This document shows, piece after piece, positions 238-27,008 of a stretch of 34,894 nt of DNA. Every line of letters starts with the position of its first letter. The first letter of the stretch is position 1. The DNA comes from Macrostomum lignano (lineage: Eukaryota): contig NIVC01004797.1 of assembly GCA_002269645.1 (NCBI GenBank), positions 1 to 34,894 of the forward strand, written 5' to 3'. The position numbers and the translations under genes are program-made. The notes beneath the pieces are model-generated. The model had not been told where the DNA came from. It was given only the letters and a program-made list of their open reading frames with translations, and made no database searches.

Positions 238-810
238 ATGAGCCCACCAGCTACAGCCCTAAGAGTGACCAATCTGGTTGGCGGAGTAGATCTGAGACTG
301 GATGGTGGCAGGGGCGCTCAGCTGCCTCTACGGGAACTGGCTCTCAGCATGGCTCATGTGATCTACCGGCCCGTCTGGCCCCGGGTGCTCATCAAGCGGA
401 TGCGGATTCCCAGAGTGACTCTCCTACTCTACCCTACTGGGCAACTGAGCATCTGCGGTGCCAAGACCCACGCAGACGCCAAAAGGGCTGCCCGTCGCTT
501 CGTGGCTATGCTGCATCGGAGAGTGCCGGCTCAACTGCTGCCTCATCAAACAATTTGTGTTCGAATTAAAACTATTACTGCTCATGGACAGCTCCCAGTT
601 CATTCCGCACTTTCCTTATTAATGTTAAAATCAATTATCCCAAACGCCGAATATGAACCAGAATCCTTTTCTGCTTTAATTTTCAATTTAAACTTTTGTA
701 AATGTCTGCTTTTTCACAGCGGCTCTTTTGTTCTCAGTGGAGCTCGGTCCTTGAATCAGTTGCATACCGATAGCATGCGTCTACTCAATGTAGTTCTTTC
801 CATTGAATAA
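238..810 (+). CDS. Divergent TATA-binding protein (TBP)-like protein, 190 aa from the first ATG, intronless
   Basis: Two TBP repeats: VTNLV...VIYRP...RMRIPRVTLLLYPTGQLSICGAKT...AARRF and AEYEPESFSALIF...CLLFHSGSFVLSGARS (compare canonical YEPELFPGLIY and LIFVSGKVVLTGAK). The ORF-track start at 199 is TTG; the first ATG is at 238. The stop overlaps AATAAAAATAAA (poly(A) signals). Confidence 0.85.
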   Translation: MSPPATALRVTNLVGGVDLRLDGGRGAQLPLRELALSMAHVIYRPVWPRVLIKRMRIPRVTLLLYPTGQLSICGAKTHADAKRAARRFVAMLHRRVPAQLLPHQTICVRIKTITAHGQLPVHSALSLLMLKSIIPNAEYEPESFSALIFNLNFCKCLLFHSGSFVLSGARSLNQLHTDSMRLLNVVLSIE

Positions 811-1392: not shown

Positions 1393-4300
1393 CTAGACCA
1401 GTCGGATGCGCTTCAGCTGATCGTGGGATGCGGGCGTCAGCGCATAGTGTCCGTAGGGCAGGCTTCGATTACTGCTAAGCCACACTCGCTTATCCTCCCA
1501 CACCGATAGGCTTCTTTTCTCCATGACCGACGTGAAGATTTCGTGTTTCTTGGAAACAATCGCTGTCATGGCAACCATCTGCTCTTGCTTGGACTCGAAC
1601 GCGTCGACATAGTTCGCATGCGAAATTTGCTGTCTTACTACTGACTGCTTCACGCCTTTGGCAGTTTTCTTGATCTTTGCACTCGAATTCTCGGCAGGGA
1701 GAAACGAATAAAGTTTTGGACGCAAAAGAATCCACTCCTGGTAAATTCCACCAGCAGATTCATCTTTAACGCAGCCCAGCTTTCCTTTTAACTCTTCAGA
1801 GAAATGCGGATGGTCTCGAGAATAGTTGGATGTGTCAAGTATTTTTTCCTCTCTAAGCTTCGGGATTACCTCCGATGTTAAATCATGATTCTTGAAAGCT
1901 AGAAAAAATGAGTCAGTATCACCTCCGCAAAGCATCATGTCTCTGGAACCGTCTGAATGACAGAACAGCGGTCGGAGCCTGTCATATAGTAGGCTGTACA
2001 TGGCCATCTTAGAGAGATCGAGAACTGCCTGGCCAACGAAAATGGCCTTGTCAAGCGTGACTTTATCTTTTTTGAGCTGAAAAATGCTCAACGACTCATT
2101 GATAATCGAGAATGCGGCACAGTTTGGTCGAGAGGCGCAAGTTTCTGCTTGAGTCTGGTTAGTGCAAATTCGAACATCGCATCTTTTTCGAACGTTCTCC
2201 ATAGTTTTTCCAAAGAGAGAATTGTTTTTCAATTTGTAAAAATCCTTAGCAAACTCGGAAGTTGCCAAAGCTCTTTTTTCATTGTTGCTGGCAATGTACG
2301 GCGCGAAAATATTTTCCTGCTTGAACGAAATCATTTTTTTGACGCACTTGATCCGCATTCCGTGTTGCAGGTAAAATCTTAAAACGGTGCTGTGAACTAC
2401 GTAAGAATCCTTGTCGGTACAGGTGAGTAGAAGCTTCTCCGTTGCTTGAAACTTAGCTTCAGCATTGCCAGTTCGCTGTTCAGCAATCTCTTTCCATAGT
2501 TCGGCCATGTACGGCGAGAATTGATCTGGCTGTGGTTTTGATTTTTCAGGTGCAAACGGTAACTCCTGAGTCGAATCGTGAATCTCAGCTGGGTATTCTA
2601 GATCGAGTTGAACAAGGTAGGCGATCTCGGCTTCTGGATTGAGTGACAGAAACCGATTGGAGTCCCAGAACTGGATTTCCTGTTCCGGTACCCACCTGAA
2701 TTCCCTGCATGGAAGCGGAAGCGACAGGGCAAAGCCATACAAGTTGTTCATATCGATCGGCATGAGGCTTACACTCTCTTGCTGATCATCATAACCTGGC
2801 AAGCTAGGATTATTACCTTTGACGCAATGCACATTAATGAAGGACATGCCTCCTCGTATTCCCTTCTCAAACAGATGATACATGTCAGCATCAGTCAGCT
2901 GCTCTAGAACCACTCCAGTCGACTTTAGAGCTGAGTCGTAAGACAAACCAGGAGTAGTAAAGTAGTGTACCGGATCCAATCCGTCCTCTTTCAGACTGGC
3001 CTGTCGGAATGTCTCGAAAATGTCAGCCAGCTGCCTTACATCCATTTCAAGATAGGCGAGCATATAATCCTTCAAACTTTTGCATTGAAATGCCGCCCAT
3101 GCCGCTCTTGCTCTATTGTAGTCGTCGTCGGAAATTCCCCGATCGGAAAGTCGATTAAAAAAAGCATCTTTAGGCGGCAAAACCGACTGCTCGAGAATCT
3201 CAAATCCTGTGAGGTAATCATATGGGAAAATCCCTTTTTTTCGAAGTAGCTCTCTTGAAAGATGTGGTCTTGACTCAAGCATTTGCATTGTCAGCTTGCA
3301 TTCAGCTTCGGGAAGATTAGCAAACAAATTGGACAAACTTCCCTTCAAAAAGCAGAGCGAGTCGATGAACTGAATTGTAAACATGATTGGCACAACTTTT
3401 CCGTTCTTTACGTAACTTGCAACAGGGAATTCCGCCCTTAGTGACAAGTATCGCTCGGATGATTGCGGAACAACACTAAGTTTCCAATTTTTCATGCTCC
3501 CAAGCGCAGTGGAAAGTAGAAGATGAAGGTCGTAGCCGCCTAAGTTGTGAAAAACCAGGGGCAGAAACCGGCGTCGGAGCTGTGCTCGCAGGTTGCATTC
3601 TTGACATGCTGCACCTTTGTACTGTCCATTTAAATGATCGTGGTCAAAATGTTTATCTGTAGAACTTTTAAAGTTCTTCTTGCAGTAGTGACATACCTCA
3701 GCAGAATTGAAATCATCCATGACGGTCGCGGATGATCGGTCAGCCGGCTGGTGGCTATGCTTCTGGTTCCAGTGAAATATATCCTGAGCCAGGCTTTCAA
3801 GAGATTTGAGAAAACCAAGGATACACTCATCAGGGTCCGCATTGCAAAAGACCTTGTACATGTCTCCTTCTGGCCTAAGCGGAGGTCCTGTCATGCCTTC
3901 ACGAGGCACTGCAAGAAAAGCTGCTGCACATGGTTCATGCTTTGAGATCAGGTTAGCAGGGTCTGTGTTCGCTCGCAAAATGGCTTCCAGGTCGGCATAG
4001 GCAACGAATGGTGGACTGACAGTGTTTTGACAGTTTCGGAACTTTATTTCATTCTGTCCTGGAACTGGAAGCGTTTCTTTGACAGGATTTTCTGCAGTAA
4101 TGCTGCATTCGTTCCTGTGCTCTTGAAGCCTCTCGTTGCTATAAAATGATGTTAAACATTTCGTGCACCACTTCCTCATGGCGGGACCATTACGACTGTT
4201 CATTAACCTGTCAAAATTAGTAATTGCACACCAGTGCTCCGATCCGTAGCTGTCTTTAACTAGCAAAAGCATGAGGTGTCTTCGGTCATCTGACTCATGC

Positions 4301-5042
4301 TTGCGGCGACGGAGAAGAGTCACACTGCCCTGCTGCCAAGAGAACGCAGAAATGCAAATTCCTGGATTGTTAGACTCGACGCGATCGATATCAGCGACAC
4401 ACACTGGCATGGAGATTTCTGCAAAGTCCAGCTCACGCAACCATTCATCGTAAGAGGATATTCTGTTGGGCGATTTCTGAACTTTCGGATCGGCGCTGTG
4501 CAGTGCAGCGAGACAGGCGTACAGGAAACAGTCTTTGCCTGTGCTCGGTGGATTGATAACAGCCTTTTTGTTCTTCAAACTGGCAGGAAGATTGAATCTA
4601 ACGGCTCTGCCCTGGCGAAATCGAATTGGATTGTACCTGGCAAGGTTGATGTCTAGAAAATTAATTTGTTTAATTGTCCAGCCACTGCCGTTCGTATTAA
4701 TCATACTACAGATCCTCTCCAACTCCTGCTCCTGCTCAATCAACCAGTTGTTTAAACGGCCTGCTTCACCACCTAGGTCTAGGGCCTGCATTTTACAGCT
4801 TATCCATCTGTCCTCTTCGGCAAGCATCTCCCCATCTCTTATTCGGACCATTCGAATATTCGCCTTTAGCTGAACTTTGTAATGATGTCTTGAAATTCTT
4901 TGCTGAACTGCCTCAATAATTTTGTCTCCAGCTTGGACAAAAAATTCTGACGGAAGCGTGTCTGGGTGACTCGATCTGAGCCTCAGTATTTCCAGTGATT
5001 GATCATAGGCTTGGGCAACTCTGCTGAAGCTGACTGTTGAAC
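1393..5042 (-). CDS. polB: Protein-primed family B DNA polymerase (pPolB), main exon, with C2H2-like finger and inserted endonuclease VII-like domain
   Basis: Exo I YADLEA, Exo II FHNLGGYD, Exo III YLEMD; Pol motifs DMNNLYG, KLKNNSLFGK, GDTDS; N-terminal GSGW and KKAVINP...DCFLYA motifs; CHYC...DHDHLNG...CQECN insert. The frame is open 64 codons upstream of the ORF-track ATG (4851), up to a CAG acceptor ending at 5043. Confidence 0.95.
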
Positions 5043-5274
5043 CTGGTTTGTGGTTTTAGGATAATATTTTTGTTTTTTGCTGCCTATAGTTTCAAATATC
5101 AAAGATACTAAACTAAACGTCTGTACCCAAGCATACATGTACAACCCTACCGGTATAAAGTCTTTTATCTCCCCTTCTCCCATTCTTTGGACTAAAATTT
5201 TAGACTGCATAATATACATCGCATTGATAAGAAAATTTTTAAGTAAGTTGAAAAGGATAAATAAAGGCACTTAC

Positions 5275-5707
5275 CTTGGTGTGCATCAGTCACCGACTCG
5301 CTGTTGGCTGCTGACTCGCTGCTGGCTGCTGACTCGCTGCTGGCTGCTGACTCGCTGCTGGCTGCTGACTCGCTGCTGGCTGCTGACTCGCTGCTGGCTG
5401 CTGACTCGCTGCTGGCTGCTGACTCGCTGCTGGCTGCTGACTCGCTGCTGGCTGCCGACTCGCTGCTGGCTGCCGACTCGCTGCTGGCTGCCGACTCGCT
5501 GCTGGCTGCTGACTCGCTGCTGACGTCATGGTCCACCCAAGGGTGGTCATACTCGATCCACGAGTGGCCATTCTCCATCCACGAGTGGCCATTCTCCATC
5601 CATGAGTGGTCATTCTCCATCCATGAGTGGTCATTCTCCATCCATGAGTGGTCATTCTCCATCCATGAGTGGTCATTCTCCTGCTCCATCCAGGAGTGCT
5701 CAACCAT
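5275..5707 (-). CDS. Putative first exon of polB encoding (MENDHSW)n and (SESAAS)n repeats
   Basis: ATG at 5707 is the first Met after an in-frame stop. There is a consensus donor AAG|GTAAGT after 5275 in phase 1, matching the phase-1 acceptor CCAG|GT at 5043/5042. The joined product reads ...TDAHQ-G-STVSFSRV... and is 1360 aa. Confidence 0.65.
5296..5522. repeat. 18-bp tandem repeat CTGACTCGCTGCTGGCTG, about 12-13 copies (SESAAS on the minus strand)
   Basis: Directly visible near-perfect tandem units. Confidence 0.95.
5545..5700. repeat. 21-bp tandem repeat CATGAGTGGTCATTCTCCATC, about 7 copies (MENDHSW on the minus strand)
   Basis: Directly visible tandem units with divergent end copies. 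Confidence 0.9.
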
Positions 5708-6591: not shown

Positions 6592-7992
6592 TCACAGCGG
6601 CACAATTCTAATACGATTTTCGAAAATCGTTACCTCGTACCCAGCCCCGCCGACAGGAGGCAGAAAGAAGGCAACTCCAGCTGGCACGGGTGGAGTTTCG
6701 GATTGAGAAGCTGGAATTGTAGAGGCTGCAGCTGGGGCGGCTGGAGCAGCTGGGGCAGCCAGAGCAGCTGGGGCGGCCAGAGCAGCTGGGGCGGCTGGAG
6801 CAGCTGGGGCGGCCAGAGCAGCTGGGGCGGCTGGAGCAGCTGGGGCAGCCAGAGCAGCTGGGGCGGCCAGAGCAGCTGGGGCGGCCAGAGCAGCTGGGGC
6901 GGCCAGAGCAGCTGGGGCGGCCAGAGCAGCTGGGGCGGCTGGAGCAGCTGGGGCGGCCAGAGCAGCTGGGGCGGCCAGAGCAGCTGGGGCGGCCAGAGCA
7001 GCTGGGGCGGACAGAGCAGCTGGGGCGGCCAGAGCAGCTGGGGCGGCCAGAGCAGCTGGGGCGGCTGGAGCAGCTGGGGCGGCCAGAGCAGCTGGGGCGG
7101 CTGGAGCAGCTGGGGCGGCCAGAGCAGCTGGGGCGGCCAGAGCAGCTGGGGCGGCCAGAGCAGCTGGGGCGGCCAGAGCAGCTGGGGCGGCCAGAGCAGC
7201 TGGGGCGGCTGGAGCTGCAGGTGGCACAATTGCATTATGCGACTCATTGTCGCTGCCCTCCTCTTCTAGGATTTCCATTTCGTGGTCGTCTTCAATTAGA
7301 TGAAGTTGTTTTCCAGCAATCACCGGAACCGAAGAGACAGGTTGCTGCTGCTGCTGCTGCTGACCAGCGTTGAATTCCCTGAGGAACTGATCCAGGACAT
7401 CTTCCTCTATGAAGTTTATGACAGCAGCAGCCTCGACTCCAGCAGCCTCGACTCCAGCAGCCTCGACTCCAGCGGCCTCGACTCCAGCAGCCTCGACTCC
7501 AGCAGCCTCGACTCCAGCAGCCTCGACTCCAGCGGCCTCGACTCCAGCAGCCTCGACTCCAGCAGCCTCGACTCCAGCAGACAGCTCAACTTCAAATTCT
7601 GCAGCTGCTGAAGACCCGCTTGGCCTCATCCTCTTCAATGTAGAGTCAATTACTTGACTCAAGTGAGCTGATAGCAGACTCCTGCTGGCTCCCTTTTTCT
7701 GCTGGCTCTTCTTTTCTCTCTCGTTGCTCTTTTTGATGGCGCGGATTACTTTCCAGCGGTTACTTTCTTGCTTTTTCTTGTCATCGCTGACGATCTTGTG
7801 TCCTCGATGATATGCTGGAATTTTTCCCTCCTGCAGAGCTTCGACGGTGCCGCACTGGTCGCATGCCAACCAGCATGAGACCAGACAGTTCTCATTCTCG
7901 TGGTGTCTTGGGGACACGCCTCCAAGCAGGCACACTTCGCAGCTTATACAGACCTCATAGAGGTCTCTATGACAACTTTTAAAAGTTTTCAT
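6592..7992 (-). CDS. Hypothetical 466-aa protein: Cys/His-rich N-terminus, basic segment, AAGVE repeats, Gln run, acidic patch, Ala/Pro repeats
   Basis: Long ATG-initiated ORF with non-repetitive N- and C-terminal parts, an AT-rich leader and TATAAAAG about 50 nt upstream. No family recognised. Confidence 0.7.
   Translation of the reverse strand: MKTFKSCHRDLYEVCISCEVCLLGGVSPRHHENENCLVSCWLACDQCGTVEALQEGKIPAYHRGHKIVSDDKKKQESNRWKVIRAIKKSNEREKKSQQKKGASRSLLSAHLSQVIDSTLKRMRPSGSSAAAEFEVELSAGVEAAGVEAAGVEAAGVEAAGVEAAGVEAAGVEAAGVEAAGVEAAGVEAAAVINFIEEDVLDQFLREFNAGQQQQQQQPVSSVPVIAGKQLHLIEDDHEMEILEEEGSDNESHNAIVPPAAPAAPAALAAPAALAAPAALAAPAALAAPAALAAPAAPAAPAALAAPAAPAAPAALAAPAALAAPAALSAPAALAAPAALAAPAALAAPAAPAAPAALAAPAALAAPAALAAPAALAAPAALAAPAAPAAPAALAAPAAPAAPAALAAPAALAAPAAPAAPAAASTIPASQSETPPVPAGVAFFLPPVGGAGYEVTIFENRIRIVPL
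6727..7215. repeat. 18-bp tandem repeat GCTGGGGCGGCCAGAGCA and variants, about 27 copies (AAPAAL/AAPAAP)
   Basis: Directly visible; built from two 9-bp sub-units. Confidence 0.95.
7425..7580. repeat. 15-bp tandem repeat GCAGCCTCGACTCCA, about 10 copies (AAGVE)
   Basis: Directly visible. Confidence 0.95.
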
Positions 7993-8050: not shown

Positions 8051-8321
8051 CAATTTGTTTTTGTCTATTTGTTTATTTGTACTTGCGTGGCTGCTTATAT
8101 AGTAATTTGTACATGCATGCCCTCTCCTTATCATATCGTATATGAACATCCAGCCATGCTCAGGTAATAATTACTTTACCGTTATAGAGGCCACTGGCTG
8201 TAATTAGTGTATCCCCCCCGTCCCCTTATCCAGGTAAGCAACACCAGCCGTCCTCTGTGCAGTTGTAAAACTTTATAACCTTACCCTAACACAGAGCACA
8301 GAGATTGGCCACCCCTCTTAT

Positions 8322-8806
8322 CTCTGCAATGTTTAGCCGTTCCCAATGCACAGAGATAGGATCCTCTCCGCAGTGTATTTTTCCTATATCCTTTTTGCCG
8401 CCTATCTCGCCAGCGCTAGTGCGGCAGTATCATGAATCGCCTCTATCTCCGCAGTGCTTAGCCGTCCCCAATGCACAGAGATAGAGCTCATATCTCTGCA
8501 GTGCTTAGCCGTCCCCAATGCACAGAGATAGAGCTCATATCTCTGCAGTGCTTAGCCGTCCCCAATGCACAGAGATAGAGCTCATATCTCTGCAGTGCTT
8601 AGCCGTCCCCAATGCACAGAGATAGAGCTCATATCTCTGCAGTGCTTAGCCGTCCCCAATGCACAGAGATAGAGCTCATATCTCTGCAGTGCTTAGCCGT
8701 CCCCAATGCACAGAGATAGGGCTCATATCTCCGCAGTGTATTTTTCCCTATACATTTGCATTGCCGCCTATCTCGCCAGTGCTAGTGCGGCAGTATCATA
8801 ATTCGC
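8322..8806. repeat. 47-bp palindrome-containing tandem array (six copies at 8451, 8498, 8545, 8592, 8639, 8686, plus a diverged copy near 8325) with a duplicated flanking block; probably part of the element's terminal inverted repeat
   Basis: Unit GCAGTGCTTAGCCGTCCCCAATGCACAGAGATAGAGCTCATATCTCT; block 8370-8440 recurs at about 8733-8806. Confidence 0.95.
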
Positions 8807-11118
8807 CCTACTACTAAAGGGTCTTCCATTGCAAATTTGAGGCCGATTCTCTCCGCCGTGCCCCTCATACAAAACTGCAACTGGGGTTCAGAATGGGTCG
8901 GCAGAATGGATGCATCCCGATAAAGAAATCCTGCCTTCCAGGCGCGGCACTGGTCAGCAAGTGCTTTTTCTCTCTGAACTGCATCGCTCACAAGCATACA
9001 AGCACATTTTCAGCGGCTTGCTGGAATTTCTCGATCTTGTTATGGGATGCTGAACGGTAGGGAAAAATTGCACCCAACTTTTTCCTTCATCATCATGCCC
9101 TTGTTCCTACCGAAGCGCACAAACAATTAAAACAGAGAAGCACTTTTTATTGCACTTGCTGCTTGCTGCGGTTCGAACGGTTTCCCGTCCGCTCTGCCTC
9201 ATTATCCGACATCCACAACTTGTTATCGCAGAACCTTCGTTCTGTACAAGCGCAAAGCATGCACAAAGGCTTGCATTAGCGTTTTATTTTCCCAGGCAAA
9301 GACGATGAATGCATGCGTCTAGAGAACTTTTTTTACATGTAGTCCTATGAATTTCGGCTGACTGGCAATGTCTTTAGCATTTGCAGACAGAGAATCGATA
9401 AAATCTAAAAGAATTAGCAAGGCAGCTGTTGGATAGCCAGCACGCTTTAATTCACGCTTGAATACAAATCATTCGAGATCTTAACCGGAATTAGTCTAGG
9501 GCTCTATGCTATTACTGTTCTGCATGCATTGGAATCAGTTGCTTTGGTGCCAATAATTTTCATTCGATTCATTCAGGATGCTCGCTCCCACTGCAGAATA
9601 GTTCCGTATGGAAGCAACGTGGTGGGCAGAATGGAAGAAACGGCTTTGGGTGCACCGGGTGCAGTTCATGGAGGGAAAAAGATTTCGGACTAAATGGTTG
9701 CGTAGCTCTGGTAAACAAAATGGCCGAGACTTTGCTTGTCGACTGTGTATGTTGGCCAGTGTGGTTTTGCAGTGGGGACAGAGTGCGTAGCTGGGGCTTG
9801 GCCCCTCGGTGCGTGCACATCTCTATCCGCCACGAAGGCCGATCAGGATCAAGCAGCCTCACGATGAAGCCCACACAACTTACTATATTTAACCGTAAGC
9901 CGCAAAACTTCTGATCTTCAAAGTTCCACGCCCAAAGCAAAAGTTTTAGGGAAACGCAATTCGATGCCATTTCCTAGCTCATACCATATTCTAGTCTTTG
10001 CGGGGGTAACTTATCATAGTAAAAGGTCACACTCTGCCAATCTTTTAGCCACTTGCATACTGCAGCTACCGCAGCAACCGGGAATTTGTTTAGCGGATAC
10101 CATTTTGTACAATTGAAGTCAGTTAGAAAAGTACAAATGTTGCGAGCCCTGATGATCTGAAGGCGAAGCGTAAATGCAAAGCTTGTAGTGCATTAAGTAT
10201 GCGAACGTGTTGAAAACCGCATCAAGTTCCATTCGAGAAGTTGGTGGAAAAATAATTGGACACGTGATCAGCGCTAGAGTGTAGGTTTGGAGAGAGCGTA
10301 AGTTTTACGCACTAAATCAAGCATAAAACATAAAACTGGAGCTAGCATTCAAGTGATTTCCAACGTATAGCTGACGCAATAAAGCGTCCAAAAGGCTAGA
10401 GTTGGTTCTTTTTTATTTCCTTGGTCCTGCGTGGAAGGAAATCGAAACAATTCAGTTTTACTTCTGTCTTTGCTTGCTTTGCTTGCTTCCCCTCTAAATC
10501 GAGTTCAACGAAACGATTATCTTTACATTAATAAAAAATAAATTGTGAAACATGCGTAACTTCTATATTAACTTTAATTTTGTAAATTTTTTTGTTTGCA
10601 ACCTCAACAGAACATTAAAGGTTGAATATTTTCTAAACCAATTTGTCATGTAGAGGTGGGGAAAAATCTCGACATAAAAATTGCAGGCTCCGAAAGTCAA
10701 GCCCATATTTTCTGAGACGGCTTACGTTACCCGTGCACTCATTTATGTAGAAAATTCTGTAATTTCGGAACTCATTGCGGGTGATGTGACAGAACCCTAT
10801 CAGTCTGTTGTAAGGACAGGACAGTTTTTAAATTAGAAAATCGCGATGAACAATTATAACAAAAAGAGTCAAATTAAAGTGCTTTTTTGGCCCAAGACAG
10901 GTAAAGGAACCAGAAAGATTATTTTTAAAACGTGAAGTTTTTTTATACGCAACAATTTTCTGATTAGGCATTGTTTTTACTAATCAGCTGATCAGCCTTG
11001 ACAAATCATATGATTCGCCGAGGTAACTACTAAATTCTAACTCAGTAATCGTTACTAAAGGTCAAGCAGTTTTTGTGACGCAGCACAGCGATTGATTTTA
11101 GAAGCGTTCTTACTAAAG

Positions 11119-13746: not shown

Positions 13747-13861
13747 TCCAGACTGGAATGAGGAGGCGCTTTGGTGGGCTTGGCTGCTCCCGTTGCTGGC
13801 TCATTAGATTGTGCTGTTTCTCTTGGTGTTAGTATACTACCCACGGTCCTCACCCTCCTCA

Positions 13862-14760
13862 AATCTGATTGGCTGCCAAATCAGTCAAACCAACCACCCC
13901 ATTCTCAACCCCTCACCCACCTGCAATCTAATTAGCTGTCAGATCAGTCAAACCAACCACCCCATTCTCAACCCCTCACCCACCTGCAATCTAATTAGCT
14001 GTCAGATCAGTCAAACCAACCACCCCATTCTCAACCCCTCACCCACCTGCAATCTAATTGGCTGTCAGATCAGTCAAACCAACCACCCCATTCTCAACCC
14101 CTCACCCACCTGCAATCTAATTAGCTGTCAGATCAGTCAAACCAACCACCCCATTCTCAGTCCCTCACCCACCTCCAATCTGATTGGCTGTCAGATCAGT
14201 CAAACCAACCACCACCCCATTCTCAACTCCTCACCCACCTGCAATCTAATTGGCTGTCAGATCAGTCAAACCAACCACCCCATTCTCAGTCCCTCACCAC
14301 CTCCAACCTGATTGGCTGTCAGATCAGTCAAACCAACCACCACCCCATTCTCAACCCCTCACCCACCTGCAATCTAATTGGCTGTCAGATCAGTCAAACC
14401 AACCACCCCATTCTCAGTCCCTCACCACCTCCAATCTGATTGGCTGTCAGATCAGTCAAACCAACCACCACCCCATTCTCAACCCCTCACCCACCTGCAA
14501 TCTAATTGGCTGTCAGATCAGTCAAACCAACCACCCCATTCTCAGTCCCTCACCACCTCCAACCTGATTGGCTGTCAGATCAGTCAAACCAACCACCACC
14601 CCATTCTCAACCCTCACCCACCTGCAATCTAATTGGCTGTCAGATCAGTCAAACCAACCACCCCATTCTCAGTCCCTCACCACCTCCAATCTGATTGGCT
14701 GTCAGATCAGTCAAAACAACCACCCCATTCTCAGTCCCTCATCCACCTCCAATCTGATTG
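13862..14760. repeat. Minisatellite of about 63 bp, 14 copies plus a partial, with higher-order repeats
   Basis: Unit starts at 13862, 13925, 13988, 14051, 14114, 14177, 14243, 14305, 14371, 14433, 14499, 14561, 14626, 14688, 14751. Confidence 0.97.
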
Positions 14761-15375: not shown

Positions 15376-15488
15376 GAAATCGCTTCTGTCTGTCCATCTG
15401 TCTGTAAGTGTGCCTGCCTGCGTCTGTCTGTGTGTCTGTTTATCTGTCTTAGTGTCTGTCTGTCTGTCTTAGTGTCTGTCTGTCTTAG

Positions 15489-15535
<47 letters not shown>

Positions 15536-15620
15536 GTGTCTGTCTGTGTGTCTGTCTTAGTGTCTTAGTGTCTGTCTGTCTGTCTGTCTGTCTGTGTGTC
15601 TGTCTGTCTGTCTGTCTTAG

Positions 15621-15671
<51 letters not shown>

Positions 15672-15704
15672 GTGTCTGTCTGTGTGTCTGTCTTAGTGTC
15701 TTAG

Positions 15705-15743
<39 letters not shown>

Positions 15744-15768
15744 GTGTCTGTCTGTCTGTCTGTCTTAG

Positions 15769-15823
<55 letters not shown>

Positions 15824-15856
15824 GTGTCTGTCTGTGTGTCTGTCTTAGTGTCTTAG

Positions 15857-15903
<47 letters not shown>

Positions 15904-15950
15904 GTGTCTGTCTGTCTGTCTGTCTTAGTCTCTGTCTGTCTGTGTCTGTC
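15376..15950. repeat. Compound (GTCT)n microsatellite with GTGT and CTTAGTGT interruptions
   Basis: Directly visible. Confidence 0.97.
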
Positions 15951-18466: not shown

Positions 18467-19193
18467 CCAAAACGGTAACAAATATACAGACGACAGTCAA
18501 ATAGTGGCAGTCAGGTTGTGTGTGGTGTGGGGCCTAGGCTAAATCGCGGGCTCCCGTGCAAAATGTCTAAGACTACAACGTCTAGCAGTACAAGCCTAAT
18601 TCACTTTATTTACAGTTCTATGGCTAAACTCGCTGCAGAGCAGATCATTCGCTTGAAATATTGGTTTCCTTGGTTTGTTTTGCATTAGCAGTAGTTATTC
18701 ATAGCCATTTAGTTGGTTTTGCTGGCTGGGCTCGACTGAAAAAACAAGGGCTAAAAAACAGACACCCCCTCTGCACGATCATATCGTTCGATCGATAAAA
18801 TTCAACCCCTACCCCCTCTATACAGCCAAACTGTCTAGGGCCCTGCTGGGCTTGGCTTTCGCCTATCCTCTCAAGTCTGCTAAAAACCTTACCCATCTCC
18901 ACTGTCTGTGATTGGCTGAGAGGCCGGGGGAGGCCGGGAGGGGTTTAAAAGAAGTTAATAAAACCAACGCCCCCAGCAAGCAGCAGTTGAGCGGCGGGGC
19001 GGCTTTAGCATTCCGCATTTGTTTTAGCTCGTGCTGCAAGTCTGCAACCAAAGCCTATGGCTATAAGCGCGCTTCCTGTCAAGTATAATGTAAATCCTAG
19101 TTAGAATTAAAACAATGCCTATTTAAATTATGATAGCTGGATTTTTGCGGTCGGTATCTCTGTGCCCCATATTGTTAGTTTTTTTGACCATCC

Positions 19194-21300
19194 TGCAGAA
19201 TCGTTCGTTAAATTCACTGTACGCACATTTTTTAGCTATTGACATGAAACTTTCCGAAAATGAATATTTTCATTATGCTAACATTTTAGAAGTGTTTCAG
19301 AAGTGCCATATTTGTTAGTTCAAGGGCTGGGCGGTCTCTTGAGGTTGCACAATCCATGTTGGGGCAGGTCTTGAGCCAGCCATTTTTAATTTTAAGTGGA
19401 AAGCATCTAATTCGCAGTATTTACCACAGAATATACACAGAATGGCGAATCGGCAGTTCTCTATGAAAGCGAAAATAAATGCGATTGCACTACTAACGTT
19501 GTGAAGCTGATAAGTAGCTGCGATTTTTTAAACGCAAAGTTGAATGTAAAAGTTGAGCTCAAGACAGCCTTTGAAAGCTCTGAATCATCGTTTTGACGCT
19601 GCAGATGAATGCTGCGCCATCATTGTAATTAATTTGTTCATAACGGTGCGTCCGCAAAGTCATGAGCAGAAGTAACAACTGTTATAACCTCATTGCCATG
19701 TACATGTAAGCTAAAAAACAAAAGTAACAAACATTTAACAACAGGTTAAGTTTTAGCGCTGCACGCAAGGCAGGAAATGCCAGACGCAACAGAAATAACA
19801 AATCTCATGCAATCACACTCATATTCTTGAACTTCCTCGATTGCTCATTGCAAAATGCTCGCCCGCGCTTTCTCTCCTGAGCCGCAATCCTGCGCCCATT
19901 GCACCAATGGTGCAAGCGCAGCTTCGAGAACAGCCTCGCAATGCCCATCACGCATCTCTCTGAGTGCTCAGCGCAATGAGTCGCAATATGTTGCAATCGG
20001 CCAATAATTTGCTGATTCTGTGTGACACACCAGCATGCATGAACTCTGTCACTTCCAGCAATTTGAATTGGCGTTCCATCTCAGTGACAGCTCTGATAAC
20101 TGCTCTGCTTGGGGTGACTAAGCTGTCATCCCGCTTGCACTTCAGTCGCAGGAAGCGTGTCCGAATTGCTTTCCTTTCAGTTCCTGCTGGAACACCTCAC
20201 ACTTGCACTCGGTTTTAATGAAGCGGAACAGCAACCAACCGCCGACATATGCGCATTTCTCGTGATCTAAGTCATCCGATGTAGCAAAGAGCTCATCACC
20301 TGCTTCCGTGAGATCTGAGTCACAAGTGTTGCCCTGCAGGTGGACTGGATCTGGAGCTTCTTGGCTCACTGCAGCCTTGGATGCTCTCTGGCTGCTGAAA
20401 ACCGGTGAAATCTAGTGCCCGGCGGACACTTGCCGGCGTAGTTGGGGCATCCGTACGCAGCGCACTGAAGCCTCAAAGCAGACGCAGTCATGCGAAAACA
20501 GTATCACAATAAGCTGCGTATTAAAACTCTAGCAGATATGCCTTCGGTATTACATGTAGCACTTTTGAAGCCAGACCTAGCTTCAGCAGCACCAGCTTGG
20601 GCCATAGAGAATGCAATATAGCAAAGACAGGCTAGCGCGATCAATAATGCATTTGACCTGCATGCTTTCACGCCACGAGCTCGTGCTTGAACGCCCAAGG
20701 CATGCTGTCTATGGCACTAACTTAAAGCGCAGCAGAAGGCAGGGCCAGCCTTAAGGTAGTTTCTAAAAATAGCACAGTTTAGAAGGGGGTGGGTTGGTTC
20801 ATCAAGCCTTCTTCCTATATTCTGTGGGACAAACCCGCAATAAATGGCAAAGAATTGGTAAAGTGCCATTCAGCCTACTTAGTTTCTCTTCACAACAAGA
20901 GTAGCCAGTATAGAATATCATTCTTGTGCAAGAAATTTTCTCAAAATGCGGGATTCGCCATTCTGTGTATATTCTGTGGTATTTGCAGCTTAGCAGTGCC
21001 CCTATCCTTAAAGCCCCAGAGTTTGTAGCTAATTTTGGTCATAGACACATTTTTTACCAGTGACATCAGCAGCGCACAAATTCAAAATTGCATAATCGTT
21101 AATAGTCGTTTAAATTCGGAAAAACACGGAAAACCCCGGAAATTGCAATAAAAGTTAAGTTGCAACCCCCCACAAATGGAATTTTAATGTCAAAACACTT
21201 CTAAAATGTTGGCATGATAAAAATATAATTCATTTTTGGAAATTTTCGTGTCAATAGCTAAAAAAATGTGCGTACAGTGAATTTAACGAACGATTCTGCA
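19194..21300 (-). mobile_element. Internally deleted P-element/THAP-family transposon
   Basis: Inverted repeats of about 105 bp (19194-19297 and 21193-21300), a perfect 30-bp inner inverted repeat (19422-19451 and 20952-20981), and THAP and transposase C-terminal remnants inside. No TSD found. Confidence 0.75.
19805..20491 (-). pseudogene. P/THAP9-like transposase remnant: THAP start joined to the C-terminal domain
   Basis: ATG at 20491 gives ...QCAAYGCPNYAGKCPPGTRFHRF (THAP N-half). Shifted frames then give AYVGGWLL, KRDDSLVTPSRAV...EMERQF and IARLFSKLRLHHW...SRK, which are C-terminal motifs of P-type transposases. The catalytic core is absent. Confidence 0.75.
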
Positions 21301-21542
21301 CGATAGCCAGTTTTTTATTCGAACTGCAGAAATTAGTCATAATTTCAGCGTCTGATCTAATTTAAATAAATCAATGCCAATCAATAGGCAATATTTACTA
21401 TGCTTTTAGTGGGGTAGTTTTAAATTGCTCAAAAATTGTAGAAAAGCTTTTAAATGTATCATGAGCTAGTTTTTTATACAAACAATATCTTTTATACAAT
21501 AACGAGTTTATTAGACTATTTATTCTATTTGTTTATTGTTTA

Positions 21543-22018: not shown

Positions 22019-22832
22019 TTACTTACAGTACCTAATACAGTGATTAGTGTTAGGTTGAGCATTGTTGTGCAACAGAAGGTGAGGCTTCATCGCAGTCCTG
22101 CGCTTGTTGCGAATGTCAGATTTCAGCTTGGTCAGTGTCTCAGCGTAGCGATCCGAGTTAATCGTGCTGTTCGGCTCGAGAAAGTCGATGGTCAGCGGAT
22201 CTTCTTGATCGAAGAAGAAGGTCAGCATGATCTTCTTGCAGTACTGGTCTCGTTTTGCCTTCACAGATGAATCTGAACCCTTCAACGCCCATACCTTGCT
22301 CTCCTGCTTTGTCTCCGGGTCAAAGTGCGGAATCCAGGTCTCGTCGCTGGTCACCACATACGGTCGGAAACTCTCCCACCCACCGGCATCCTGAGCCAGC
22401 TCAAGATTCTCCCTGCAGGACTTCATTCTTGCAGCTTTCATTTCTTTCATCAACAAACGGGGCACCAATCTTGCCGATAGCTTCACCATGCCAAGATTCT
22501 CCGCCAAAATTCGGTAAATTGACGTTTTTGGGCTCCCCAGCCCATTTGCCATCTTTTTTGCGGTGGAACGGGGATTTTCTTGAATGAAATCCTTTTTCAA
22601 CTAGGGCCTTAGTTGATGAGGAAATGGGACAGCCACGGCTGGCTGTGTCATCAGCAACGTCCGTTCACCCTTGGCTGAACTCTTCGATCCACCGGTAGAC
22701 TGCACTCTTCGAAATCGCGCCTGCTCCGTGGATGTCAGTGAGCTTGCTGACAATTTTGCTGCCTCGCTTCCCAAATCTCCACTGGGAATACACAAACTGG
22801 CGTTGACCTTCTTTAGATGAAACGCTAAACAT
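22019..22832 (-). pseudogene. Mariner (Tc1/mariner, Mos1-like) transposase pseudogene, 3'-truncated
   Basis: ATG at 22832, HTH region ...ISKSAVYRWIEEFSQG*TDV (stop, then frameshift), ENPRST, ARLVPRLL (WVPHEL-like), VTSDETW, KKIMLTFFFD, LLHNNAQP (second catalytic D changed to N); the third Asp/YSPDL region is missing. Confidence 0.92.
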
Positions 22833-23470
22833 TTAACAATTGAACGAGGGAGAACAGAAAAGATGAAATCAACAATGCTGTCTTGTCGTGATCGAAGATC
22901 AGTACCGTGATTTCAAATGCTTCTTGCAGCTTTACGCCGGTGCCACTGATGTTTTTTGTGCTGTTCTGCTTCTGCATTTGTTTTAGATTAGCTTCTGCTT
23001 TTTCGAGGGCTTATGTGTGCTTTTGTTTCTCTTCAGCTTCTTCGTTTGCTTTTGTTTTCGGATCGATGGTTCTGACTAAAGATCAAAAATTTAGTCTATG
23101 GTCTAGCATAGTAGGCTCGACTTGGTGTAACTCTATTCACTACCCCTTGTTCTAATTATAGACAAAACTTTTGAATGAGTTGACATTTTTACCCAATTTA
23201 AATAAGCAAAACAACCGTTGAATATTTTTAAATAATACAGGGACAACTAAAACCCTCGGGACGCGAAACGAGCCAATTCATGGCAAAAAATCTGAGGGGC
23301 TCGCTTAAAAGTATTGTTCTATGGCTTTTTAAAGTCTTCTCTGCTATCAGGCATTAACGGTTAGATTAAATAGTAAAGCGAGGCAATGTCGAGTATTTAA
23401 TTTAAAGAATAGGAACCAGTGATATAATTACAATGTAATTTACAATAAAGTAACCGCCATATCAACAAAA

Positions 23471-23635
23471 AACTCCAACGGCAAGAAGATAAAAGATGAA
23501 AGCAAAGATATAACTCCAACGGCAAGAAGATAAAGGATGAAAGCGAAGATGAAACTCCAACGGCAAGAAGATAAAGGATGAAAGCGAAGATGAAACTCCA
23601 ACGGCAAGAAAATAGAAGCAAATACGGAACTCCAA
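23471..23635. repeat. 41-bp tandem repeat AACTCCAACGGCAAGAAGATAAAGGATGAAAGCGAAGATGA, 3 full copies plus partials, at the P element 3' end
   Basis: Units at 23471, 23512, 23553, 23594. Confidence 0.9.
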
Positions 23636-23724
23636 GGACAAGACGACACAAACAGTCAGTAGCTCGTACATAAAGGAAACGCTGGAACTTCACCTACTGA
23701 GCATTTAACTTCCGAAGCTTTCTA

Positions 23725-26530
23725 TCATGGGATGTCGTCGGTATTGGTGGGAGTTTTGACGAGCGTCTTACTAGTCCTTTGAAAAAAACGTTGGCTAGCC
23801 GACGGGACACTGTCCATGCTGAACTGTGTGTTAGTTGGAAAGTAAAAGTCCTTAATAACATAAAACAGCTTCTGCACGCGAGTTGCGCACGTAGGAGAGT
23901 GCAGAATAAAACTGCTGTAGCAGAGACAGGATAAGTCTAACAGCCATTGTGGAGGATGACAAAGCTTTCCGCGAGATAACTCTTCAGTGAATTCGCTGGC
24001 TGGAATGCTCGTCTCTGATATCAAATCTGTTCCTTTGATGCCTGCCTTCTTTAGTCGCTGTATAACCTGTCAATTTCCAATTAAGCACGGTTTGAATTGT
24101 TTTGATGAGATTGTGTAAAACCTCGTTGTGAATTAAATTTTAATTAATATCCAGCTTACCTGCGATATAGTGTAGAGCGAAGCCATCTCCGAAATGGAAA
24201 GCTCCTCTGATTTAGCAGCACAATTATCAATGGTCGCCAGTTCAATTTCATTCAGCTGTTCATTGCAACATTTGCTCCGATCGTGCTTGTAGTCTGCTAA
24301 TTCAAGGGATGTCAATAATTTCATTCGTCGGAGTCGAGCACTGAGCAGCACTTGCTCCACAGATACATAGTAGTTGCCGCCGCTCATTTGGCGATATACG
24401 CCAGCCAGCCAGCAGAACGTAGCTGATTCGTGGGTCGGACAAAAGAACCTCACACATCTCACAGGCTCCGCGCAGTGAGTTTACTAGCGCTGACTTGGTC
24501 TCGGGCGTCAATGAATGATGGCGAGCTCGGCCTTTTCCACAATGTGTCGAATCAAACGAATCCGCGAGCGCGCTAAGAAATTGTATGCTTTCATCTTGAA
24601 CGGAATAGACTGGTCGCCTGTCCGGATCCCGTAGTCGTGCGTGTAGATCAGGATTTTTACAATTGACAATTTTCCAGAATCTCACTATGGTTTTGATAAA
24701 TTCCGCAGTGTCTGAGTATCCATCACACTTCAATGCAGCGGCAACCCTTTCATCGAGAACTTGGAGAGCGAGACTGACTTTAGTTTTCTGAGTGCTTGTG
24801 GGATAACAGGCCTCATGAGTTAGACATGTGCGCTTGACTACGTGGTCTTTCTCCATTTGGTACAGGCGTACCACGTCTGACCATTTAGCGGATATCTGTC
24901 TGTCAGCGCCAGGAGGTTGAATGCTTAGAATTCCATTCGCTTCCATTTGCCAATTGTTGCGAATGCATTTGATAATGTGAACGAAATCGAACAGCATGAA
25001 GAATTCCGACTCCTGTGCAGCATCCGTTCCAATCCATGGCTTCTCTCTTCCATCGCTAAATAAAGCAAAACACTTGCGGTTGGTCGGGTGATTGTCGCTG
25101 ACGAGAGCAACGACACGGCCACCGTTGTTGTTAATTGCTTTAATACATTGGCTGACGCATTTTCGCAGAAACTCCGCAGACAAAATGTATGTCGGCAATA
25201 GTCGGACTACAAACGGTTTTCCACCAAGTAATGGCTTTACCATTATGGCCAAAATTGTCCTAGCAACCTGGTCCGGATCGTCGACGGCTCGACCCAGGTG
25301 ACGGCATCGATATCGAACGGACGGTTGTATGTACATTTCGTCAAACATATTACGCAGTTTCGCTGAGCTCCTGATAGACTAGCAAAAACTGACTGGATCA
25401 CATCGGCTGCGTCGGTTTCTGTGCCAACTTCTCCTGTACCTGCTAGTTGCAGCTGCAGCGTTCGGGGATGAGGCAATGGCAATAGCTTCCGTAGGTAAGA
25501 GTAAGCCGAACTACTGATCAAGTAGAGCAATGCTGACTGTCGCACTAGTGAAATGTCATAGCGGCGATTGTTCCGATTTACTAATTTAAGGCTAAGTTGT
25601 CGAATCAAAAACTGAAGCGACCGATCCAAATCAGAGTCAGAATCTATATCATCACTGATTCTACTAACAAACGCTTCGACTTCACGTTGGGGATTGGCGT
25701 CGGAATTTTTGCACCGCACGACAACAGCATCCAGTTGCGACCAGCGTCGGTTGAAATCCCAACAAGTCTCGAACCGAAATCGGTGTATGCAGTTTGAATG
25801 CACGAATCAGAAAGTTAGGTGAGACAAAAATTCGAACAGACAGGTCTCCATCTTTATCTAACGTAAACAAGTAAATGTCTTCGTTCAGAATAGCTGTATT
25901 CAGTGCATGTCGAGATACGATATCCGAATTTTTCACCTCAGCTCGAAAACTTTCCCATGCCGGCAAAAAATCAAGCAGCTGAAAAGCGTCCATCTCATCG
26001 ATGTCGCTGCACCTCGCGTCAGAAAGAACACCGCGCTTTTCGGCCTGTCGGTCTTGGTCTAAAATAAGAGTAAAAATAAAAGTAAGATAATTGTGAGCGG
26101 CAAAATCGATATAGACGCTAAGTGTTGAGCAATCTTTAAGTTACGTACCTTGGTTCTGAACAAAACACGAGCTAGGAACTCCATTAAAAACAGAAGGAGG
26201 ATTAATTGGCCTTTTGGTAGAGTTTTTCTTGAACATTGGAGCATCGCTTGGCCAATGCTTTACGCACACGCCCATATTGTCAGTCACTCTCTAAAATAAT
26301 AAATTTTGGGTTTCAAGTTGTTTGGACGAGACTGGCATGCAGAATTGAAGCGGAATTATGCAGCAGTAATGACAGCAAATGATCTGGTTTCTTACCTGGA
26401 GAATATTTGGCAGCGCCTTTCTCCATCGCTCTCGCTCCTGTGGATCTCTGGGAAACGCAAATGTCCGTGTTCGAACGGCTTCAGAGTTGTAATTTGACGA
26501 GCACGGAAATACGCTGCACTTTCTTGGCAT
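23725..26530 (-). pseudogene. Spliced THAP-domain P-element transposase pseudogene
   Basis: Exon 26530-26396 (MPRKCSVFPC...FAFP...RERW), exon 26290-26149 (GVCVKHW...PPSVF), exon from 26058, then SAYSYLRKLLPLPHPRTL, FDEMY, VSDNH, FDFVHIIKCIRNNW, KVSLALQV, YRQMSGGNY, a further intron near 24160-24070, and SEFTEELSRGKL. At least five frame disruptions. Confidence 0.92.
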
Positions 26531-27008
26531 TTCATCAAGTGAATAAAAAATGCTTCTCTTGATATAGTTCAGCTTAGCTTCACTGCTGGCCGCAGCTAAA
26601 GCAATTTTAATTTGCCTGATTGCAGAGAAGACTTGAAAAAGCCATAGAACAATACTTTTAAGCGAGCCCCTCAGATTTTTTGCCATGAATTGGCTCGTTT
26701 CGCGTCCCGAGGGTTTTAGTTGTCCCTGAAATAATACTAATGACGCAAGTTGCATAAAATTCGAATACTACAGTCAGCCTCTGTACTGGTTTTTTCTGTT
26801 ATTTCTGGGACAATCCTCGTAAATACGTCGTATTCAAAACATAAAAGATAATAGCGATTCTTGTGATGGAAAGCTATGTAATATGGGCAGAGAAACTCTT
26901 AAAAGGATTTGAGAGTTGTAAAAATGGATAAACCTGTACATATATGACATCGCATAGTCGATCGTCCCGTAGTGCTTATTATAAAAAGGCGCATTTGAAT
27001 AGTGAAAA

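Follow-up and report, generated by a model that had tools for sequence, protein, structure and literature searches.

Where does the DNA polymerase of a Polinton element in Macrostomum lignano begin? The question is raised by contig NIVC01004797.1 (assembly GCA_002269645.1), whose 34,894 nucleotides (nt) we refer to as the window. Its minus strand carries a gene for a family B DNA polymerase of the protein-primed kind (pPolB), and the reading frame of this gene is open above the ATG at 4849-4851. Between that ATG and a stop at 5058-5056 there are 68 open codons. An earlier note, made from the sequence alone, had described the frame as open for 64 codons; the openness holds, and 64 is the number of codons that lie in or across what we call exon 2. 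The gene consists of two exons separated by a phase-1 GT-AG intron of 232 nt (5043-5274, 32% GC), with the donor AAG/GTAAGT and the acceptor CCAG/. Exon 1 (5275-5707, minus strand, 433 nt, phase 1) carries an acidic, Ser-rich tail, and its ATG at 5707 would be the start codon of the transcript. Exon 2 (1393-5042, minus strand) encodes a predicted terminal-protein (TP) domain, a predicted vOTU protease, a zinc finger, an exonuclease region with an Endonuclease VII insert, and the polymerase. The spliced frame (5707-5275 joined to 5042-1393) has 1360 codons, and coordinate arithmetic agrees with the note's fusion of a 144-residue exon into a 1360-residue product. Read without splicing, the exon 1 frame stops inside the intron after 171 residues.

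Is the intron real? The donor 8-mer on its own is at about chance level (two occurrences in the window against 0.8 expected, and at least two in 18 of 100 shuffles). Since the motif could be fortuitous, the intron was tested in reads and in relatives. The read check covered window positions 1-5340 in contigs of four (X1, X5, X6 and X13) of 24 listed public runs. A single joint was found, in two of the four runs and from different studies. It skips 232 nt (5274-5043) with CT..AC ends on the plus strand, and thus lies exactly at the donor, acceptor and phases proposed in the note. In X13, the joint is anchored by 557 nt on one side and 36 nt on the other. Two more in-phase AGs follow the 5043 acceptor (exon starts 5033 and 5018) and are used by no joint. 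An intron-less DNA copy was not seen among 36 genome matches, and a transcript is therefore the best reading of the joined form. The GT-AG ends, the host-consensus donor and the joint in X13 and X5 identify a U2-type spliceosomal intron, and the GTAAG donor and CAG acceptor agree with the motifs given in PMC8629364.

Several points weigh against this conclusion. The run contigs count as RNA only by guess, the short side of the X5 joint is 26 nt (below the 31-nt threshold), and read-level evidence is limited to the window's lineage. X1 and X6 contain the unspliced form without the joint; as variants are lost from contigs, this is no proof of anything. The joint could also be minor or artefactual, with polymerase synthesis starting at ATG 4851, on a different upstream exon or on a trans-spliced leader. 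Unspliced contigs occur in all four runs, two of which have no joint; the genome holds 30 exact matches to the 3′ end of the leader RNA, which ends in ATG (control: 0); and the public model P0007 joins the upstream gene of a sister lineage, B, to exon 2. However, the spliced form is deeper than the unspliced one (12.8 versus 9 in X5 and 10.7 versus 4 in X13, a weak measure), and no loose end is present at 5042. Joined at 5042, a leader ATG would not be in frame, and a start at ATG 4851 would cut the TP domain. In the window's lineage, the upstream gene of 466 residues has no GTRAG donor, and its fusion to exon 2 was rejected on that ground. We consider a minor or artefactual joint very unlikely, and we are nearly certain that the pPolB intron is real and is spliced from host transcripts.

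The sibling copies in the genome point the same way. A search with window positions 4700-5300 gave 36 matches, 32 of them over nearly the full query, and 30 loci were fetched. Both splice sites are present in all 30, as the note's reading required. The intron is 232 nt long in 27 copies and 215-216 nt in three. Exon 1 ranges from 361 to 439 nt and varies by whole repeat units, which bears out the expected variation in repeat number; it ends in phase 1 in 29 of the 30 copies and is stop-free in 26. One 95% diverged copy has a 70-residue exon 1 and a GTGAGT donor. In the window, the repeats form two tandem arrays on the minus strand: a 21-nt array encoding MENDHSW-type units (5525-5681, 7.5 units, with the number of units differing among copies) and an 18-nt array encoding SESAAS-type units (5295-5522, 12.7 units; copies that stay in frame have 8-12). 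The 144-residue product of exon 1 is of low complexity, with 31% Ser, 21% Asp/Glu, no Lys or Arg, and a net charge of -30.

What does the splice provide to the protein? An AlphaFold2 model of the product of 5040-4051, built with a 101-row alignment, has a mean pLDDT of 91.4. Its first part is a predicted PRD1-like TP domain (4633-5034, minus strand; model residues 3-136) made of strands β0 (3-10) and β1 (16-23), helix α1 (30-49), strands β2 (53-68) and β3 (71-81), helix α2 (93-117), a GSG loop (118-120), and strand β4 (121-136). The closest structures are LF/PAD domains of Y-family polymerases, with middling Z scores of 8-8.9 (for 1jih, Z 8.8, root-mean-square deviation 3.0, 109 residues aligned). 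A Foldseek search against the PDB gave no row at E ≤ 0.001, and a profile search of PDB sequences returned zinc fingers only. Structural matches between TPs and LF/PAD domains have been described (10.1101/2024.03.18.585575). In the model, the predicted primer domain lies wholly within exon 2 and its fold is complete without exon 1. The stretch above the first ATG, which the earlier note took for real domain sequence, is the first half of this predicted domain: ATG 4851 is residue 64 of the model and sits well inside strand β2. As this ATG falls within the TP domain, the splice is needed for an intact primer domain, and by sequence and model only spliced RNA can encode an intact TP-vOTU-polymerase.

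Downstream of the TP domain lies a predicted vOTU protease (4195-4593, minus strand, approximate borders), with its Cys codon at 4530-4528 and its His codon at 4236-4234. The Cys is found in 100 of 101 aligned rows and the His in 99 of 100; the OTU structures 4boz and 4bou gave weak Foldseek rows to this region (E 0.04-0.08). An Endonuclease VII insert of the HNH type follows (3586-3702, minus strand; PF02945, E 1e-5), and then the DNA_pol_B_2 match (2188-3558, minus strand; PF03175, E 2.4e-12). The top Foldseek match is Drosophila-associated adintovirus 2 (E 8e-21).

The note had linked the Ser-rich exon to priming. In the published model of Polinton pPolB, the linking residue of the TP lies between α2 and β4, beside Gly or Pro (10.1101/2024.03.18.585575). 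A candidate linking Ser is found at this very place, in a GSGW loop of exon 2 (4684-4686, minus strand; residue 264 of 1360), and the position is Ser in 100 of 101 aligned rows and a hydroxyl residue in all 101. Exon 1 serines could instead be the priming residues or part of the TP, as the tail is 31% Ser, is fused beside the TP domain, and would stay on the TP after the proposed vOTU cut. Yet the TP fold found by structure prediction is complete in exon 2, the exon of lineage F contains a single Ser, and the sister lineage J has no such exon (both described below). With the fold and the GSGW Ser in exon 2, and exon 1 unconserved, as short as 16 residues and swapped between lineages, a priming role of exon 1 is unsupported. 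We regard priming by exon 1 serines as extremely improbable, and the exon 1 tail is very probably not the primer.

Is this gene structure confined to the window's family? A protein search of the genome was made in which 150 of 529 candidates were scored. Sequence was then fetched for 31 places that belong to other lineages and for two diverged copies of the window's own lineage (L043, too distant to anchor, and L044 and L068, both truncated, were left out). Nine polymerase lineages, A to I with A the window's, have a phase-1 donor (GTAAGT, GTGAGT or GTATG), and in each a YAG acceptor precedes the same motif by 20-32 nt. Identity among the lineages in the TP-vOTU region is 34-68%, and their exons and introns differ widely. 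Proteins of lineages B and H are attributed to Macrostomum lignano in their sources. Lineage A has an exon 1 of 144 residues (net charge -30) and an intron of 232 nt. Four lineages have short exons: B (30 residues, net -3, intron 486 nt), D (27 residues, net -5, intron 349 nt), E (23 residues, net -5, intron 443 nt) and F (16 residues with one Ser, net +1, intron 523 nt). The others have long ones: C (106 residues without an ATG, net -18, intron 191 nt), G (107-396 residues, net -44 to -223, intron 305-306 nt) and H (207-209 residues, net -31 to -37, intron 185-186 nt). Lineage I has its exon 1 in common with G and an intron of 179 nt. In a midpoint-rooted tree, the nine lineages and two Logan proteins form one clade (support 99/95). 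Its sister is lineage J (98/98), which starts at its own ATG with a zinc finger and is unspliced.

The splice in lineages B to I is a prediction. For lineage B, gene models joined at exactly the predicted site are already public (A0A1I8IZN4 and A0A1I8J9M7 in UniRef); these are automatic models, and others in the same set are plainly chimeric. In a shuffle test, an ATG-led phase-1 exon arose in 7-26% of shuffles per locus, and 7 of 12 real loci passed. The failures are four loci with an ATG outside the 700-nt test window, and the lineage C locus L037, which has no ATG. Alignment scans of viral_contigs and metagenome_contigs gave no relatives among 32 and 54 pattern matches, respectively.

The single-copy lineage C exon (L037:2650-2960, contig C878) starts right after an in-frame TTTCAG acceptor. 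A host leader ending in ATG could supply its start codon. We note that most other lineages have a [TC]TNCAG motif no more than 150 nt upstream of exon 1, mostly out of frame. In the P element, splicing serves as a cell-type switch. By analogy, pPolB splicing might decide whether an acidic peptide that leads nowhere or the complete primer-polymerase is made, with the acidic exon a swappable regulatory module and the ATG of lineage C taken from the host trans-spliced leader; we find this combination rather unlikely.

If exon 1 does not prime, what might it do? Across the lineages, it has no conserved sequence over its range of 16-396 residues. Neither a Pfam match nor, among 7999 scored candidates, a longer relative was found, and the latter is weak evidence. 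What recurs is charge. Exon 1 is net negative in eight of nine lineages, and the Lys/Arg content is 0-2% in all long versions. Each of the five repeat arrays is read in whichever sense frame is most acidic (in one case marginally, at -12 versus -11; the arrays are perhaps not all independent). In 70 other homologs, at least 30 residues stand before the TP; 46 of these homologs have a net basic charge there, 35 resemble a zinc finger and 9 are acidic. Sequence comparison also shows that the exon has been exchanged between lineages. From the upstream gene through exon 1 to the 90th nt of the intron, G matches I at 93-96% identity, whereas their polymerases are only 47% identical; and two types of H have the intron and exon 2 in common (97%) but diverge in the 5′ portion of exon 1. 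The copies of lineage H disagree near the start.

The main rival to a charge role is that exon 1 is a neutral carrier of the start codon, with the repeats a tolerated slippage at a disordered N end and the acidity a side effect of keeping out basic or hydrophobic tails that would do harm. The free length and sequence and the exchange between lineages fit this well, as do further points that tell against a role of charge. The short exon of lineage F has a net charge of +1 and those of B, D and E reach no more than -3 to -5, values that fit a mere start-codon carrier. Tandem arrays also occur in the upstream gene, in the terminal inverted repeat (TIR) and in the introns of B and F, which suggests that repeat growth is an element-wide habit. 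On the other hand, a neutral carrier does not readily account for the choice of the most acidic frame in five of five arrays, for the near absence of Lys and Arg from all long exons, or for the W-S-E-type motifs that recur in lineages C, G/I and H. We judge the neutral carrier unlikely, though the strongest of the competing explanations.

Alternatively, the tail may be a phosphorylated or Trp-acidic surface on the genome-linked TP at which a host protein docks, for instance a chromatin factor or an adaptor for transport. Trp-acidic motifs bind host adaptors, and Trp with acidic neighbours is found in lineages A, C, G/I and H; sites of the form S/T-x-x-D/E number 8 in the window's exon 1 and up to 85 in lineage G. 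Against docking, exon 1 of B, D, E and F has no Trp, the motif of A is unlike that of the other lineages, and the Pfam and candidate searches above found no exon 1 homolog. We think such a docking role improbable. A tail acting through its charge is thus weighed against both pure neutrality and motif-based roles, and we lean towards charge. As for the tandem arrays in the introns of the two short-exon lineages, their periods are 8, 15 and 23 nt in L036 (B) and 21 nt in L040 (F).

The explanation that we favour overall, with some reserve, is that the spliced exon 1 provides a start codon and an acidic tail that damps DNA binding by the TP, with priming at the exon 2 Ser. A single GT-AG intron is removed from the Polinton polymerase transcript, as the 232-nt joint shows in runs taken to be RNA, and exon 1 would supply the start codon together with an acidic tail that lacks structure. 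Following the published model (10.1101/2024.03.18.585575), the Ser of GSGW would take the first nucleotide, and vOTU would cut between the TP and itself, so that the tail would stay on the genome-linked protein. The tree suggests that the intron arose once in the clade, and that an acidic exon stands there where relatives usually have a basic or zinc-finger N end. The negative charge of the tail may damp DNA binding of the predicted TP domain, and selection may hold the tail acidic while leaving its length and sequence free.

How does this gene compare with known systems? The Polinton/Maverick pPolB described as TP-vOTU-EXO-PALM (10.1101/2024.03.18.585575) likewise has a predicted LF/PAD-like TP, a Ser beside Gly, the Cys and His of vOTU, and a polymerase. 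In the present gene, however, the N end has an exon of its own, and the available text of that paper contains neither "intron" nor "splic" and describes no acidic repeat tail. Alpha adintoviruses, or group 2 Polintons (PMC8502044), also combine OTU and PF03175 PolB with an rve integrase and adenain; in the present element, a spliced acidic leader replaces the N end that is common among homologs, which is contiguous and either basic or of the zinc-finger kind. Core genes are described as intronless in vertebrate Mavericks (PMC8097293) and in a nematode Maverick (10.1101/2022.07.12.499685), descriptive rather than diagnostic statements, whereas the window's element has an intron in pPolB. In adenovirus, the E2B gene for the preterminal protein also takes its TP start codon from an upstream exon, of 9 nt by a predicted splice (PMC2397415). 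That exon holds three codons, lies kilobases away and belongs to a separate TP; those here hold 16-396 codons, lie 180-520 nt away and are fused to the polymerase. Polinton-like elements of dinoflagellates that bear introners (PMC11957031) likewise contain spliceosomal introns, but theirs are recent transposon insertions, whereas the present intron appears old, clade-wide and needed for the intact protein. In the literature searched, which left most subscription papers, supplements and Repbase outside, no description of a Polinton polymerase gene interrupted by a spliceosomal intron was found.

Because Polinton core genes are treated as intronless, annotation based on open reading frames would start at ATG 4851, and the predicted priming domain would be halved. 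To find a conserved intron in this gene, supported by transcripts to the extent that the runs are RNA, is a useful correction. If needed for the intact protein, the intron implies nuclear transcription and dependence on host splicing for the whole clade. The ratio of spliced to unspliced RNA may offer a simple read-out of replication competence in a young Polinton family of ~33 copies in a tractable animal. With its border exactly at the edge of the TP domain and its exchange between lineages, exon 1 offers a clear example of exon shuffling within a virus-like element.

The element itself is an ordinary Polinton of the Alpha-adintovirus type. In the window, it ends in a TIR of 340 nt (8476-8815), which matches the far end of a sibling at 100% in inverted orientation. 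The end reads 5'-AGTAGTAG on the minus strand at 8815, where sibling alignments stop, and is AGT-type, as in Polinton/Maverick elements. A 6-bp target-site duplication is exact in two (C992 and C1101) of four sibling places with both ends and absent from C530 and the rearranged C1580. An rve integrase (PF00665, E 2.2e-13) was found in the sibling locus L050, past the point where the window's contig ends, and an adenovirus-type maturation protease (PF00770, E 8.2e-5) in the sibling locus L035. A candidate for the packaging ATPase is a P-loop open reading frame with weak NTPase matches only (E ~0.01), and sibling frames of 452 and 273 residues, in the position expected for a Polinton, have no Pfam match. 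The polymerase is of the protein-primed family B by its PF03175 match and by Foldseek matches to adintovirus PolB.

Convergent with pPolB is a TBP-like gene (238-810, plus strand; PF00352, E 7.9e-25), which is present in siblings too. A PC4-like gene lies near the other end of the element (L050:1163-1957), making two transcription-factor-like cargoes. The separate upstream gene (6592-7992, minus strand, 466 residues) has a Cys/His-rich N end, two tandem arrays and a conserved C end; its position is kept in the six lineages examined (the window's and five sisters), and its arrays are lineage-specific. The array in the TIR has a 47-nt unit (6.3 units) and is flanked by a 47-nt direct repeat (8315-8815). 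The rearranged sibling place L034-L035 (C1580:203000-213000) contains a duplicated TBP region, an insert of non-LTR-type reverse transcriptase-RNase H, and a 673-residue frame.

Outside the element, the window contains a satellite-like array of 63/128-nt units (13848-14760) and a long TCTG-type microsatellite (15385-15943). Positions 19185-21309 are bounded by long imperfect inverted repeats and are probably a non-autonomous DNA transposon, and 22019-22552 (minus strand) is a fragment of a Mariner-type transposase (PF01359). A P-element-like transposon with 121-nt inverted repeats occupies 23233-26733, with THAP and TNP-like domains in pieces.

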